Positions 33,064-40,288 of a DNA stretch of 64,000 bases are shown here, one piece after another (the stretch's first letter is position 1; each line of letters opens with the position of its first letter). Position numbers and translations under genes: made by a program. Source of the DNA: Candidatus Latescibacterota bacterium (GTDB taxonomy: Bacteria; Latescibacterota; UBA2968; UBA8231); assembly GCA_965248265.1 (NCBI GenBank), contig CBDFJF010000002.1:3008001-3072000 (forward strand), read 5' to 3'. The notes below the pieces were generated by a model, which saw only the letters and a list, made by a program, of their open reading frames with translations, was not told the DNA's origin and ran no database searches.

Positions 33064-35886
33064 CTATTTGAGCAAACTGTGGAGGCGAGCCTCGGAATGC
33101 GCGTTCCAGCCGCTGAGGATCTCGGCGATGCGAAAATCCTCATCGAGGATGAAGGTGATGGGCACGGAAAGCCGATCGCCCGAATAGAGCAATTCCAGGC
33201 TGCTCTCGTCGGCGGTGAAGACTGGATACGAGATTCCGAGTCTGGTGAGAAAGGAGGCGACTTTGCGGCGGGCGTCTTCCACTTCGACGCTGATGCCGAT
33301 CAGATCCACACCAGAGGACAGCAGTTCGGGGTAGAGTTTCTCCAGCTGCGGCATCTCTTCACGACACGGAGCACACCAGGTGGCCCACAGGTTGACGACG
33401 GCAGGGCGGCCCGACGAGCGCAGGGCGGTCGCGGCCCCGTGCCGGTCGGTCAGCGCCAGCGCGGGAAACGGCTCTCCCGGGCGCGGCCGTACGGACTGGC
33501 GGACGAGCTCGTCGGTCGCCGCGGGGTCGGACAGCGAGAAGCGGCGCTCGCGCACGTACTCCAGCTCGTCTTCACCCTCCCGCACCAATACCGATGAGCC
33601 GGCCGCTACCGGGCCAAAACGCTGCGTCGATCCAGCGGGCCACCGGATCTGGAGCCATTGGGCGCTCTCGTCCTGTCCCAGGCCGAACAGCAGGCGCGGG
33701 TCACTCTGCGAGACGAAGCCGCTGCCTCCTGCCTTGATTCGCGTGAGCACTCCCTGCGAGGTCTTGACCCGCACCCGGGCGCCGTAGGCGTCACGCCCGC
33801 TCTCGCTTCCTCTCAGGGCAACGCGGAGGAAGCCGTTGCGAGTGCCGACTTCATTGCGGAACAGGTGATGGGTCTGCCCCTGCAGGCTGGTCAGGAAGAC
33901 GTCGTAGTCGCCGTCGTTGTCGAAGTCGGCGTAGGCGGCGCCACGCGCGTCGCTGACGGCGTCGAGCCCCGACAGTCCGGAAATGTCGACGAAGCGCTCG
34001 CCGCGATCGCTGAGGTAGAGCTTGTCGCGTTCGAAACCGCTGAACGAGAAACCGTCCTCCAGGATCTTGGCCATGTGCTCATTCTGATACTGGGAGTTCC
34101 CGGCGTCTTCCAGTTCCACTGACGACGCCAGCACGTGGCGCCAGAACAGGCTTCACGTGTCCTTCAGCGACTTGCCAGAGACGAATCCGTTGGGGCTGTG
34201 GATGTCCTGCCAGCCGTCGTTGTCGAAGTCGAGGAATCCACCCCCCCAGGCCCATCCGCCGGCGAACGGTCCGATCGCGGCGCTCACGTCCTCGAACCGC
34301 CCGTCTCCGAGATTGTGGAAGACTGTGTTGCCGGCGGCGAGCTTGTTGAGGACGCGGGTCTCGTCCAGGTGCGAGGCGCTGTCGGGGAACAGACGCTTGA
34401 TAATGCGATTGCCTGCCGTCGAGGACATGTTGGTGACGTGCAGGTCGAGATGCCCGTCGTTGTCGTAGTCGCCGACGGAGACACCCATGCCGTTGCCCGG
34501 GTCCAGCATGCCCATGGCGGCGGCGACATCCTCGAACCGGTCCCCGCGATTGAGGTACACCGCGTTCTCGCCAAAGTCGTTGGCAAGGTAAAAATCCTGT
34601 CGACCGTTGTCGTCGAGATCGACGAAGTGGGCCGCATACGACCAGCGGCTGTCGGCCACGCCCCAGGCGGCGCCCTGCTCGGCAAAGGTGCCGTCGCCGC
34701 GATTGACGAACAGCAGATTCGGCGTGCCGTTGGTGGCCCGTGACCAGGAATTGGGCATAACCAGGCCATAGCGATTGTAGGAGGCCACGTGGATGTCGGG
34801 ATAGCCGTCGCCGTTGACGTCGGCCGCGCTGGCGCTGAATCCCTGTGCGGGCAAATCGACGCCGGACGCCGCCGACACATCGACGAAGGTGAGCGTGCCA
34901 TCGGGCACCAACCGACTCTCGAACAGCATCTGATCGCCCAGCGTCGCCACGAACAGATCACTGTCGCCGTCGTTGTCGTAATCGAGAAAGAGCGCTCCCG
35001 AGCCGTTGAGGGTGATCTTGAGACCGGCCGCGGCGGCGCGATTCTCGAAGCGACCGTCGCCCAGGTTCAAGAAGAGGAAGTTCTGCCCCTGACTCGTCGT
35101 GAACACATCGAGCAGTCCGTCGCCGTCGACGTCGGCGACCGCGACCCCGTGAGCGATGAAGCCGGGATTGTCCGGCGAGCCGAAACGCGGCAGGGTGTGG
35201 TATACCTCGGCGGATACGGTGACTTCGTTGAACAGGTCCGTCAACGCGACGCGCGCGTGGAAGGAGGAGAGGGTGAACTCCCCGATGGACCAGCGCTCGC
35301 CGGCGCGGACAGCCTCCACGTGCGCCTTCGCTTCGGTCCAGGCGCGAGCGCCGCTGCGGTCGCGTCCGATGATGGCTATGTAGATGGAGGCATCGGCGCG
35401 CGTCTGTAACTCGCGCATGTCGAAGTCAGCCTGTTTGACCTTGAAACGCACGTCCTCGATACTGGCGAAGCCGCCGAGGTAGCTGTGCCAGCTGCTCAGG
35501 AAGGCGGCTGCGTCCACGGGCTCCAGCGGCCAGGGCGAGTCGACCTCGGCGATCCACTTGATCTGGGGCGTGCGGTCACCTCCCGGCGCAGGCCATGGGG
35601 TCGCGGTGAGTCGGGGACTGAAGTGGCCGGCCATCGAATCGGCATCGCGATCGCGCACGGCGAGGGAGAGTTCGTGCAACTGGTTGGCGAGGTCCTCGCT
35701 CAAATCCTCGATTTGTTCGACCTGAGCCCGGTTCACTGGACCGGCGTCCGACGGACCGGCCTGCGCACTACTCGCAGGAGGGTCGGCGACACCCACAGCA
35801 AGTGACAGGGCAGCGGCGGCGATAGCCGCACGGCGGGCTTCACGCCATAGTGTGATGGGTGCGTGCAAGGGGTTCTCTCGGCTCAC
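33064..35886 (-). CDS. Probably secreted FG-GAP/VCBS (CRTAC1-like) + ASPIC/UnbV + TlpA-like thioredoxin protein, 940 aa, with in-frame TGA at codon 578 (probable selenocysteine)
   Basis: ORFs 34153-35886 and 33064-34134 share a frame, joined by TGA-AGC-CTG-TTC-TGG-CGC-CAC (KDT*SLFWRHV); DxDNDG repeats on both sides; WATWCAPC at the C-terminus. Confidence 0.8.
34100..34152 (-). promoter_or_regulatory. Candidate bacterial SECIS hairpin(s) 3' of the in-frame TGA
   Basis: GGCGCCA-CGTGC-TGGCGTC (+11 to +29), or alternatively CTGGCGTC..TCAGT-GGA-ACTGG..GACGCCGG (+22 to +53); both have G at loop position 1 or 2. Confidence 0.5.
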
Positions 35887-36331
35887 ATCTCGTTCGGATC
35901 GACAATCGCACTGTAGGTAAACTGACGTACGTGGCGGGCCCGATCAATGTCGCTTACGACGAACGACGACGGTGCGGATGCGGCTGAAGGCCCAGGTGAG
36001 TTCTGCGATAATCAGACAATCAGAATGAAGCTGAGTTCGGCGCTCGAGCAGTAACGCTCGGCCTCGTATTCAAGTTCCGAGCGGGGGAGAGCTCTTTGGA
36101 GTCGACACACGAACCGAACCGATGGGTAGCGCGGTGGCTGTTCATCGTCAGTTGTTCCGTCGTCGGCCTGGTCGCCATCGGCAGGTGGGTGCGGCTGACG
36201 GTCGGGGTTGTCGATGCGGCCCGGATCGCAGAGACTGGTGCCGCTGGAGGCACGGTGGCTGATTCGGTTGCTCGTGCGGTAATCGCACCATCAAACCGAT
36301 TACCGGTGTGAGAGGTCCTGTCGTCAGGAAT

Positions 36332-36364
36332 AACCCTCCCGGAGCACTACGATCCGGGAGGGTT
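36332..36364. terminator. Intrinsic terminator-like hairpin
   Basis: Perfect 12-bp stem AACCCTCCCGGA/TCCGGGAGGGTT with 9-nt loop. Confidence 0.55.
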
Positions 36365-36841
36365 TCTGCTTCGGACGATTTCAGCTCTCAGAGTCAGGAT
36401 CGTTCCACCATGTGCTCTGGTGCGGGACGCGGGTGCCGATGGAATTGAAGAAAAGCTGTGTCGCCGTATGGGGCGGGCCGGCTCCATGGCGAAGCGGCGG
36501 CCGACGGAGTCGTCGTCCCAGGTCCAGCCGTCTCGTTCGCGGACGTTGGCCACCAGTTTCGCCGTGTCGTCGACGTACACCTTGTAGCTGACGTAAAGAT
36601 TGGAATCCGTGTACGCGTGGCGGGCTTCGACAGGGTAGGAGAGCGGATGAAGCCGCATGAAGGGCAGGTTCTTGTGGAACCGAGATACCAGCGTGGCTTC
36701 TTGCCAGGCCACGTCGTTCAACTCTCCGTCGACCACGGGTAGCACGTACGGAGGCAGAGTGAACGCCCGCAGTGATGGTAAGGCAAGGGGGAGGTGTCCT
36801 CTCGGTGACACTCCCCCTTGCTGAGCACGATTCGGCACCAT
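36347..36841 (-). pseudogene. CBM9-like/DOMON sugar-binding domain fragment
   Basis: PVVDGELND.AW..A, YTDSNLYV, RDG..W.DDSV, then loses similarity. Confidence 0.55.
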
Positions 36842-36903: not shown

Positions 36904-37404
36904 TCATGTGTTCGGCTTCTTCAGCAGAATCTGAAAGATCATGACGTGAGTCACGAAAAGGGCCGGCACGATCAGAAGTGGGATGAAAACCACTCCACCC
37001 AGTTGGCCTGCATCTACGTGCTGCAGACCTTGAGATATGGCATAAACTGCATCGATGGTCCCCTCCAGATTGAAGATCCAGACTAGAGGAATCGCAATCG
37101 ACCATCTGAACTTCAGTGCTACCACCGCAATCAGAGCGAGGATGGACGCCAGAAGGTCGCCGTAGGCAGCCGGCACGGCAAAGTCGTGGGTAACATCGGG
37201 CGATACGACACCAGGAATGAGAAAGGCAAGTCCGATGTAACGAAACGCATGGGGGAGCACCAGTGGGATCAGCGCATCATGGCGGGAAAGTTTCGTTAAG
37301 GCCGGCATGACATACCATCGAGCGATGAGTCCGTAGGTTGCTATCCCGAGCACAATGCTCACCGCGATCTTCAGCATATCCTGCCCCAGGACTTCTGATG
37401 GCAT
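36904..37404 (-). CDS. Conserved hypothetical membrane protein
   Basis: H.FRYIGL.FL.PG, PAAYGD, W.FN..G..D, VP.L..TH; ATG at 37404 after GGAGG. Confidence 0.75.
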   Translation of the reverse strand: MPSEVLGQDMLKIAVSIVLGIATYGLIARWYVMPALTKLSRHDALIPLVLPHAFRYIGLAFLIPGVVSPDVTHDFAVPAAYGDLLASILALIAVVALKFRWSIAIPLVWIFNLEGTIDAVYAISQGLQHVDAGQLGGVVFIPLLIVPALFVTHVMIFQILLKKPNT

Positions 37405-37834
37405 GAGTGTCCTCCCTTCGGTTAAGGCGCTGTGCGCTGGGTGAACGTGATGAGAAACTTCCCGATCAGACTCTTTCTCTTCTTCAGCATCAGCACATGC
37501 CATAGACGAGTCGTGGCCATGGTATTCGTGGACTACCGCCTGCCCCGCCCGGCGGTCGCACAATATGCTGCCTAACGGCAAAAAACGCACTCTCCACAAG
37601 ATGGAGGGGCGCGATCTCCATCTGTTGCGTGATTTGCCCAGGATCATGAAACGATGGATGGAGAGGGAACAGTTGCTGACTAGCCAGGCGAGGCGGATTG
37701 CCGTGGTCCGCTAGGCGAGCATCAGATTCAGTGGACGATTCCCACCCAGTGACAATCGGCAGTGCCTGCTCTCCCATGACTTAAGAACGGAAGCTGCACA
37801 TCACTTTCCTGATCAGTCGTAACATCGGAAGACA

Positions 37835-40288
37835 CTATATCTTTAGGCCACGCAGCCGCAATGCGTTGGCTATGACGGACAGGGAGCTGAAAGTCATGGC
37901 GGCGCTGGCGATGATCGGGCTCAGCAGCAGTCCATAGACAGGATAGAGGACACCGGCTGCGACGGGCACGCCCAGGCTGTTGTAAGCGAAGGCGAAGAAC
38001 AGGTTCTGGCGAATGTTGCGCATGGTACCGCGACTCAGGAGTCGCGCCTTTGCGATGCCACGCAGGTCGCCCTGCACCAGCGTGATGCCGGCGCTCTCCA
38101 TGGCCACGTCGGTACCGGTGCCCATGGCGATACCCACGTGGGCCCGCGCCAGTGCGGGAGCATCGTTAATGCCGTCGCCGGCCATGGCCACCGTGCGCCC
38201 CTCCTCTTGCAGGCGCTCTATGACGGCGCTCTTGTCCTCGGGCAGCACCTCCGCCACAACATGGTCGATGCCAAGCTCGCCAGCCACGGCTCGCGCGGTC
38301 AACTCGCTGTCGCCGGTTAACATGACGATGCGGATGCCAGCCTCGTGCAGCAGGCGGATCGCCTCCGGTGTGGAGCCTTTGATCGGATCGGCTACACCGA
38401 GGACGCCGACGGTCTGGCCGTCTACGGCGACGAACATGGCTGTATACCCTTTCTCGCGCAGGCCCACAGCCGGATCGCGCAGCCCCGATATGTCGATGCC
38501 CTCCTGCGCGAAGAGGGCCGCGTTGCCCAGGACCAGGGCCCTCCCGTCCACCGTGCCCATGACCCCCTTGCCCGGAGTCGACTCGAAACTTTCAACTCCG
38601 ACCAGGTCGAGTCCCCGAGCCTCGGCGCCGTCGACGATGGCGGCCGCAAGGGGGTGCTCGCTGCCGCGCTCGAGACTGGCTGCCAGGCGCACCAGGTCGT
38701 CCTCGCCGAGGGCGTCGGTGGTCTCGACGGCGATCAGCTTCGGCTTGCCTTCGGTGAGAGTGCCAGTCTTGTCGACGACGACGGTGTCCACCTTCTCGAA
38801 CAGCTCCAAGGCCTCGGCGTCACGGATCAGCACGCCGGCGGTGGCTCCCCGTCCCGTGCCTACCATGATCGACATCGGTGTCGCCAGGCCAAGGGCGCAG
38901 GGACATGCGATGATCAGGACCGCCACGGCGTTAACCAATGCGTAGCCCATTGCCGGCTCGGGACCGACAGCGGCCCAGACGAAGAAGGTGGCGGCCGCTG
39001 ACAGCACCACCGCAGGCACGAACCACGCGGCTACCTGGTCGGCGACGCGCTGAATTGGCGCCCGGCTGCGCTGCGCGTCGGCTACCATCTGCACGATGCG
39101 CGACAGCAGCGTGTCGGCGCCGACGCGCTGCGCCACGATGACCAGGGTGCCGTTGCCGTTTACTGTGCCGCCCGTGACGATGCTGCTCACGCTCTTCTCC
39201 ACGGGTATGGGTTCGCCGGAGACCATCGACTCGTCCACCGAGCTACTGCCCTCCACGACTTCCCCATCCACAGGGAGTTTGCCACCTGGACGCACCCGCA
39301 AGTGCATGCCTACCGTCACCTCCTCGAGGGGAATCTCCGTTTCGACGCCGTCTTCGGCGACGCGCAGCGCCGTGGGCGGCGCCAGGCTGAGCAGTTGCTT
39401 CAGGGCAGATGACGTACGGCTGCGCGCCTTCAATTCCAGTACCTGCCCGAGCAGCACCAGGGCGGTGATTACGGCGCCCGCCTCGAAGTAGACGGCCACC
39501 TGACCGCCTTGCCCGCGGAAGGAATCCGGAAACACCTCTGGCGCCAGTGTGGCGACGATACTGTAGCCGAAAGCGGCGCCTACACCGATGCCGATGAGCG
39601 TGAACATGTTGAGGCTGCGGTTGACGATGGACTGCCAGCCCCGCACGAAGAAGGGCCAGCCGCCCCAGAGAATAACGGGCGTGGCGAGGGCGAACTGCAG
39701 CCACGTGTTGGCGGTGCGCGACAGCCAGTCGTTCACCGGGTTCCCGGGGATGTGATCGCCCATGGCCAACACCAGCACCGGCAGGGTCAAGACCGTGCTG
39801 ATCCAAAACCGTCGCCGCATGTCGATAAACTCGGGATCCTCTTCCTCGTCAAGGGTAATGGTGCGCGGTTCCAGAGCCATGCCACACTTGGGGCAGGTGC
39901 CTGGCCCGTCCTGCACGACCTCGGGGTGCATCGGGCACGTGTATTCCGTTCGGTGCTGTGGGCCCTGCAGGGTGACCAGCTCGAGGGCCATTCCGCAGTC
40001 CGGGCAAGATCCCGGACCGACCTGCCGCACCTCGGGATGCATAGGGCAGGTGTATCCAGCCGAATGATCTCGGTGGTCAAGATTGCTAGTCTCTGCGCCG
40101 TGGCCTGCGAGAAACTGTGACGGATCGACGCTGAACCGCTCGCGGCAATGATTGCTGCAGAAGAAATAGGTGACACCATCGTGTGCGAAGCTGGGAGTGT
40201 CGGCTGTGGGCATTACTTCCATGCCGCAAACGGGATCTAAAGCCACCTCCCCGTCAATGCCTCCGGCGTGAACTGTTGGATCTTCCAT
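37835..40288 (-). CDS. copA: Cu(I)/Ag(I)-type P1B ATPase with YHS and two YTCPMHP metal-binding domains
   Basis: DPVCGM, YTCPMHP x2, [31 protein letters not shown] and M..SS. Confidence 0.93.

Follow-up and report, generated by a model that had tools for sequence, protein, structure and literature searches.

Are two neighbouring minus-strand open reading frames (ORFs) of a Candidatus Latescibacterota bacterium two genes, or are they the halves of a single gene whose internal TGA is read as selenocysteine (Sec, U)? Both lie in the window, a 64-kb stretch of contig CBDFJF010000002.1 whose positions serve as coordinates throughout. The ORFs at 34153-35886 (577 aa) and 33064-34134 (356 aa, beginning with GTG) share one frame, as the first-pass annotation of this DNA had proposed, and translation of 35886 to 33064 confirms that only a TGA breaks it: 577 codons, the TGA, six further codons and 356 codons add up to 940. 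This TGA, codon 578, is the sole in-frame stop ahead of the terminal TAG and stands in the context GKSLKDT-TGA-SLFWRHV. In all points examined, the first-pass description of the reading frame proved right. The start codon is a GTG at 35886, with a TTG at codon 7 as the alternative, and the gene in the window is itself intact. On comparative sequence grounds we conclude that UGA578 is very probably read as selenocysteine by SelB with Sec-tRNA(Sec), directed by a 19-nt hairpin, and that the two ORFs are likely one gene for one exported selenoprotein of 940 residues.

Conservation of the internal TGA

A paralog in the same genome (C1:2418755-2421448) is 77% identical to the window protein, and its frame, too, is interrupted by a single TGA at the corresponding codon. 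Over the 35 nt behind the TGA the two genes are identical, and synonymous sites just upstream of it differ. A search of the phylum (168 genomes, threshold E <= 1e-60) matched 32 places in 29 genomes, and exactly one TGA was present in 29 of these 32 places. In 29 of the 30 phylum loci examined, the TGA lies within the motif D[TLSG]-U-[SA]xxW; the motif D[LT]-x-S-x-FWR, which the first-pass annotation had mentioned for CRTAC1-like proteins, is real. The sole phylum match without a TGA (L047) was considered as a control and rejected, as it belongs to a different subfamily and has Trp-Tyr-Asp at the site.

The same TGA also occurs far outside the phylum. Among 80 named loci from species-representative genomes, 42 of which are distant paralogs without an alignment over the site, 24 have TGA at the aligned position. 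These 24 span about six phyla, and the metagenome-assembled genomes (MAGs) among them are labelled Pyrinomonadaceae/Acidobacteriota, Planctomycetota (Pirellulaceae, Mariniblastus), Verrucomicrobiota (Akkermansiaceae), Gemmatimonadetes, Proteobacteria and Cytophagia. In a set of 80 metagenome loci, for which a Ser-form protein served as the first query, the codon is TGA in 13, TGC (Cys) in two and a different one in 22, and 43 loci do not span the site. The tabulation of codon 578 thus reveals TGA both in orthologs and in distant subfamilies, with the same TGA present in 65 distinct homologous sequences. Wherever a stop occurs at the site in the phylum, genome or metagenome loci, it is TGA and never TAA or TAG.

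The frame downstream of the TGA is conserved up to the stop codon, and the homologs are 45-77% identical to the window protein over the whole length. Read-through orthologs are 837-1007 residues long, some of their starts being uncertain. In an alignment that combines read-through orthologs with non-Sec homologs (33 rows), S579, W582 and R583 are invariant. As the TGA is conserved in the paralog and in homologs of several phyla, it is not accidental, and a read error at this position is very unlikely for the same reason.

Protein databases reflect the TGA as a premature end. Among the best 120 matches, 74 terminate exactly at ...KDT, the window's own product among them, and P0094 likewise ends at the KDT site in the homolog alignment. 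Some of the products truncated at KDT carry the source name ‘VCBS repeat-containing protein’, and NCBI gives full-length homologs without Sec the name ‘CRTAC1 family protein’.

Two loci deserve separate mention. L040 (G151:C9:35857-40653) has kept the TGA and the hairpin, yet is disrupted by further stops (TAA, TAG) and by a change of frame, and represents either a pseudogene or an assembly error. L068, on the Acidobacteria MAG contig QIHU01000415.1, belongs to another FG-GAP subfamily and has a TGA in the context GTDL-U-LPFTQG at the aligned site. Because of this different context, Sec at this position may reach beyond the groups with the WR motif.

A hairpin downstream of the TGA

The first-pass annotation had described two hairpins behind the TGA. 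Only the first of these, with the loop CGUGC 17 nt behind the UGA, proved to be conserved. It begins 10 nt after the UGA and, with the U of UGA counted as position 1, has the invariant bases G22 (34134) and U23 (34133) in its loop. The second (CAGU-GGA-ACUG, 34113-34123, minus strand, +33 to +43) folds in the window gene and in the paralog, is not kept in the orthologs and is absent from the RNAalifold result; it was rejected.

For comparative analysis, 52 distinct 48-mers, which align without gaps, were divided by protein subfamily according to how long the insert from NG[FY] to U is, a criterion independent of the hairpin. In the group of 31 sequences, positions 14-20/26-32 are paired in 91.2% of the cells, versus 31-73% when the 3' partner is slid, and none of 500 shuffles attained the observed pairing percentage or covariation score. 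Pair 18-28 is C-G in 19 sequences of this group, U-A in seven and G-U in five, and unpaired in none; the metagenome loci additionally have A-U (L140, L141) and G-C (L142, L153). In the group of 21 sequences, the register is one base off: positions 14-20/25-31 are paired in 87.8% of the cells (18-64% when slid), the loop is 4 nt long, and in two pairs both partners vary. L044 and L046 have a different stem again, GGCUGU/ACAGCC, with the loop CGUGUC. Loops are 3-6 nt long and include CGUGC, AGUUG, GGUC and GUG. The hairpin thus changes its sequence and register between subfamilies yet persists, and it is conserved with compensatory changes at the distance of a selenocysteine insertion sequence (SECIS). 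The covariation check proposed in the first-pass annotation thus favours selenocysteine, as do the tabulation of the codon and the search for the Sec machinery that it had proposed as well.

The hairpin is more frequent than the encoded peptides demand. Of the 65 distinct sequences downstream of UGA, 61 have a stem that runs for 6 bp or more without interruption inside +12 to +36. Synonymous recodings of the same peptides gave a mean of 16.6 and a maximum of 27 of 65 (500 trials with the codon usage of the window gene), and a mean of 12.6 of 65 with uniform codon usage. Among non-Sec homologs with Trp at +4, two of ten attain 6 bp, both by A/U runs. The Cys homologs for which DNA is available (L204, L207) have no hairpin, their stems being merely 3 and 4 bp long.

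In the available text of PMC8659212, the E. coli SECIS is described as a 17-nt upper stem-loop (positions 15-31) at a distance of 11 nt from the UGA, which has G23 and U24 at its apex and a bulged U17 that is needed for SelB binding. The element described here resembles that of E. coli fdhF in being a hairpin inside the ORF just 3' of the UGA with G-U in the apical loop. It differs in having no equivalent of the bulged U17, the stems of the window's group being perfect over 6-8 bp, and in having neither a conserved lower stem nor a match to an Rfam model.

Selenocysteine machinery in the genome

Whether the organism is able to insert Sec, a point that the first-pass annotation had left to be checked, is answered by its genome, in which selA, selB, selD and tRNA-Sec were all found. 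SelA scores 472 bits (C1:382745), the wing-3 domain of SelB 62 bits in a 700-aa frame, and SelD 352 bits (G000:C2:1010876-1011799, locus L020); a tRNA-Sec(UCA) of 99 nt is also present. SelD has an in-frame TGA of its own in TCG-U-AAK. The resulting CGUAAK fits the UxxK motif given for SelD in Table 1 of the review PMC13188914, as far as that table was available. The selD gene of this genome is thus a selenoprotein gene too.

The recoding mechanism is ordinary bacterial Sec recoding. SelB loaded with Sec-tRNA(Sec) would decode UGA578, the hairpin presenting G22-U23 in the layout of the E. coli fdhF SECIS.

Residues replacing selenocysteine and phylogeny

The first-pass annotation had assumed that Sec usually aligns to Cys in redox proteins. 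This holds for a minority of the homologs. In the aligned column of 45 full-length database homologs we found Arg (11), Leu (11), Ser (6), Cys (4), Ala (3), Glu (2), Ile (2), Asp (2), Val (1), Thr (1), Gln (1) and a gap (2). Cys is present in P0004, P0008, P0013 and P0099, and in the two metagenome loci L204 and L207. Trp is absent from all 45 and occurs at this column only in loci of a distant subfamily (L080, L088 and L047).

A tree of 98 rows was computed with FastTree from about 555 residues around the site, the site itself being masked; L034, L040 and U rows with short flanks were omitted. It requires at least five changes between Sec and non-Sec. P0004, a Cys form, is sister to the Sec form L132 with a local support of 100, and Ser forms are nested among Sec forms. 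As the tree is midpoint-rooted and was made by a quick method, we make no claim about the direction of change.

Domain architecture and predicted structure

The features of the gene are compiled in Table 1. An AlphaFold2 model was calculated from the 33-row alignment; its mean predicted local distance difference test score (pLDDT) is 81.8 and its predicted template modelling score (pTM) 0.78. In this model, Sec578 is predicted to be the second residue of its helix. The pLDDT is below 50 at residues 1-16 and 32-49. Several orthologs begin, as judged by eye, with stretches resembling signal peptides of the Sec type, e.g. L033, L038 and L026.

Table 1. Features of the predicted selenoprotein gene and its product.
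Feature	Position	Strand	Remarks
Whole gene of the probable selenoprotein	33064..35886	minus	940 codons including Sec578; TAG stop at 33064-33066
Predicted Sec codon UGA (residue 578)	34153..34155	minus	N-terminal end of predicted helix 577-589
SECIS-type hairpin GGCGCCA-CGUGC-UGGCGUC	34124..34142	minus	7 bp, 5-nt loop, positions 14-32
Signal-peptide-like N-terminus	35761..35886	minus	residues ~1-42: RR, hydrophobic AAIAAAALSLAVGVA, ASSAQA; by eye
N-terminal alpha+beta domain	35242..35730	minus	residues ~53-215; NTF2/SnoaL-like by shape
FG-GAP beta-propeller	33847..35154	minus	residues ~245-680; seven D-x-[DN]-x-[DN]-G calcium-type loops
UnbV/ASPIC domain	33592..33789	minus	residues ~700-765; 63.6 bits, cut-off 23.4
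TlpA/ResA-like thioredoxin-fold domain	33121..33480	minus	residues ~803-922, WCAPC (837-841)

In the secondary structure of the model, the N-terminal domain consists of a long helix followed by a curved sheet of long strands. The truncated homolog P0058 has PF13577. A Pfam scan of the window protein found nothing over this domain, so that the name NTF2-like is tentative. The propeller motifs begin at residues 252, 302, 356, 423, 473 and 553 before the TGA and at 654 after it; the motif scan thus bears out the six repeats ahead of the TGA and the seventh behind it that had been noticed before. The insert that carries Sec (residues ~569-620) lies between the sixth and the seventh repeat. Pfam domains match on both sides of the TGA: FG-GAP_3 (133.7 bits) and FG-GAP (60.7 bits) upstream, and UnbV_ASPIC, Redoxin (61.8 bits) and AhpC-TSA (58.4 bits) downstream. 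FG-GAP_3 is above its cut-off, as is UnbV_ASPIC. No NCBIfam model covers the propeller part. The protein has only two Cys residues, Cys838 (33373-33375) and Cys841 (33364-33366).

The closest known structure is that of murine CRTAC1 (9etn), which shares the propeller and the UnbV/ASPIC domain. It is the best Foldseek match (9etn_A, E 2.3e-27, template modelling (TM) score 0.73 on the target) and the best PDB match by sequence (phmmer, E 1.9e-21); the UnbV/ASPIC region aligns to murine residues 369-483. In contrast to the murine protein, to which it is 20% identical, the bacterial protein has additional NTF2-like and thioredoxin domains and Sec. The HMMER alignment to the murine chain leaves out the Sec insert and is therefore uninformative on residue 578.

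The C-terminal domain shares the WCxxC motif and the fold with ResA and TlpA (ResA 4nmu, E 1e-15 by sequence; TM 0.75-0.82 for the C-terminal 145 residues). NCBIfam equivalog scores are far below the cut-offs, with 70.2-72.4 against 170 for ResA and 64.1-66.2 against 230 for TlpA, so that the domain is a member of the superfamily and not a ResA or TlpA ortholog. In the thioredoxin-type selenoproteins listed so far, Sec replaces a Cys of the thioredoxin motif, whereas here the CxxC motif is all-Cys and Sec is located 260 residues upstream, in the propeller.

Gene neighbourhood

The non-coding stretch 36020-36253, upstream of the gene, resembles a stretch upstream of the paralog (L008:1129-1236; in a spurious frame, 61% over 36 codons with E 2e-6). 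This similarity may represent a shared leader or promoter region. At 37835-40288 on the minus strand, 2 kb upstream, the window encodes a heavy-metal P-type ATPase with YHS and two HMBD domains. The ORFs between the ATPase and the selenoprotein gene, 36347-36841 and 36904-37647, have no Pfam match.

A possible redox role of selenocysteine

In 27 read-through orthologs, the CxxC pair comprises the only Cys residues common to all, others being located in signal peptides or occurring sporadically. Among 51 Sec forms whose C-terminus lies inside the locus, 41 have a thioredoxin-like domain detectable by BLAST and one more has CxxC without a BLAST match. The tree set comprises 45 Sec forms with and eight without the thioredoxin domain, and three non-Sec forms with and 41 without it. 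None of the 45 Sec forms with a thioredoxin domain has a Cys within four residues of Sec. Among the eight without it, which represent about three lineages, five have U-x-C and three a single Cys at +87. The U-x-C forms read U-S-C or U-A-C (L044, L046, L073, L079, L084); the lone Cys at +87 is found in L045, L048 and L050. The genome also encodes a DsbD_TM homolog.

Such a distribution of Cys agrees with a Sec that depends on a resolving thiol, which would be provided either locally or by the tethered domain. We propose that the protein would be exported by means of its signal peptide and would fold into an NTF2-like domain, a seven-repeat propeller with UnbV/ASPIC (the CRTAC1 fold) and a TlpA/ResA-like domain. 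Sec578, at the N-terminal end of a helix within a flexible inter-blade insert, would be a reactive nucleophile outside the cytoplasm. It might reduce peroxide, or an oxidised thiol or other electrophile. The selenenic acid or selenenylsulfide formed would then be resolved by the tethered CxxC, which could be kept reduced from the cytoplasm via a membrane protein of the DsbD/CcdA type. For such a relay between Sec and CxxC we see an even chance. A further proposal goes beyond the relay: the propeller would present Sec as a catalytic nucleophile in a self-contained extracytoplasmic seleno-oxidoreductase, the Sec helix swinging to the tethered TlpA-like site and untethered lineages using U-x-C or the lone Cys instead. 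This we regard as tentative and rather doubtful.

Alternative explanations

The gene callers have split the gene and the ortholog in G151 looks broken, as would be expected if the TGA were a recent nonsense mutation, a pseudogene trait or a sequencing error and the downstream part dead or decaying. The first-pass annotation had accepted a simple nonsense mutation in case no other TGA was found among the homologs. Other cases do exist, in the paralog and in the 65 distinct sequences of several phyla; the downstream frame is intact, and a single TGA is the rule in the phylum search. The probability left for a mutation is negligible. The halves might also be meant to be separate: adjacent cistrons would give polypeptides of 577 and about 356 aa that together form one propeller, and the hairpin would serve in coupling or attenuation. 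Such a split agrees with the GTG seven codons after the TGA and with the separate database entries for the two halves. This GTG is a conserved Val, however (Val585), located inside the hairpin loop, and the 18 bases ahead of it, AGCCTGTTCTGGCGCCAC, contain by eye no GGAGG-like Shine-Dalgarno sequence, as already noted in the first-pass annotation. SLFWRH, the six-codon stretch that separates TGA and GTG, belongs to the best-conserved parts of the protein; no stop other than TGA occurs at the site, uninterrupted homologs have Cys, Ser or other sense codons there, and the Sec machinery is present. We consider a programmed split very improbable. Decoding of UGA as a standard amino acid (Trp, Gly or Cys), whether through reassignment or through leaky read-through, deserves equally little credence. 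Reassignment to Trp or Gly does occur in some bacteria, according to the available text of PMC13462651. Here, there is one TGA per gene at one conserved position and other genes of the genome end at TGA. Trp at the column is confined to the three loci of the distant subfamily. The genome contains tRNA-Sec, SelA, SelB and a SelD with canonical U, and a SECIS-type hairpin follows the codon.

Selenocysteine decoding and the redox function proposed for it have to be weighed against a number of contrary results. The covariation in the hairpin is modest, with one pair changed on both sides in the first group and two in the second. For the first group, 480 of 500 shuffles attained the measure of changes on both sides, and RNAalifold retains only 4 bp (-3.6 kcal/mol). 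An Rfam scan of 33900-34300 gave no match at E values up to 10. The invariance of G22-U23 is not independent evidence, because these are the first two bases of the conserved Val codon. SelA barely discriminates, being present in 27 of 28 TGA-form genomes versus 131 of 168 genomes of the phylum; the lone TGA-form genome without a SelA match is an 80%-complete assembly of 820 contigs. Non-Sec homologs have mostly Arg, Leu, Ser or Ala at the site, with Cys in only the 4 of 45. Close relatives with a thioredoxin domain carry Val (P0005) or Ser (P0007), so that the residue at 578 is dispensable for the fold and perhaps for basal function; the same two replacements argue against an indispensable catalytic Sec. 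In the model, the pLDDT of the Sec insert is below 50-60. None of the seven neighbouring ORFs in the window recurs beside 50 ortholog loci, and the neighbourhood thus gives no pointer to a substrate. As to the earlier suggestion that Sec is reduced by the fused WCAPC domain, the co-occurrence of the two supports it, but the association is not established statistically: on five independent contrasts, about 3.4 went the same way and none the opposite way (sign test, p ~0.25). The domain would then be a candidate reductant of Sec.

A different function would follow if Sec578 were a ligand for a metal or metalloid such as copper or mercury, which the propeller would bind, sequester or sense while the thioredoxin domain keeps the selenol reduced. 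The predicted location of Sec on a flexible surface insert would suit such a ligand, as would the copper-type P-type ATPase upstream. Several of the selenoprotein families in the available part of Table 1 of PMC13188914 are metal-binding. TlpA-type proteins reduce the cysteines of copper sites, and one of the Foldseek matches is 4txv, TlpA with cytochrome oxidase subunit II. Set against this, the ATPase is not a conserved neighbour, any more than the other genes of the window. There is a single Sec, no conserved His, Cys or Met partner was seen nearby in the motif, and a resolving thiol would explain the U-x-C and lone-Cys forms just as well. We judge a role in metal binding unlikely.

Significance of the family

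In the available part of Table 1 of the 2026 review PMC13188914, an inventory of 119 prokaryotic selenoprotein families, there is no such entry, and the terms CRTAC, ASPIC, FG-GAP, PF07593, PF13517 and PF01839 are absent from its text. The available text of the deep-Sep paper reports nine new families, none of the CRTAC1-like kind. The main text of the BSepDB paper does not contain VCBS, propeller, CRTAC, FG-GAP, repeat or Acidobacteri, although its supplementary tables or the database may list the family. Full-text literature searches, as far as their results extended, returned no relevant paper joining selenoprotein with FG-GAP and none linking selenocysteine with ASPIC, UnbV or CRTAC1. The gene described here almost certainly represents a widespread family of CRTAC1-like selenoproteins of soil and sediment bacteria that stands outside the inventory of that Table 1, as far as the table was available.

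As the Sec codon cuts short most of the nearest relatives in databases, many genomes and MAGs of soil and sediment bacteria contain the gene as two wrong calls, and selenoproteome counts for these phyla are therefore too low. The interest of the family lies in its abundance, in its unusual scaffold and location, and in a link between Sec and a disulfide reductase that can be tested; public annotation splits it in two. Sec would be placed on a secreted propeller of the calcium type rather than in a thioredoxin-like fold, where most of the Sec sites known so far are located. The link between Sec and the tethered disulfide reductase points to an assayable redox activity outside the cytoplasm. If the propeller does present Sec as a nucleophile, selenoenzymes would gain a new type of catalytic architecture, and the function of the CRTAC1 fold, from bacteria to vertebrates, would become accessible to biochemistry for the first time.

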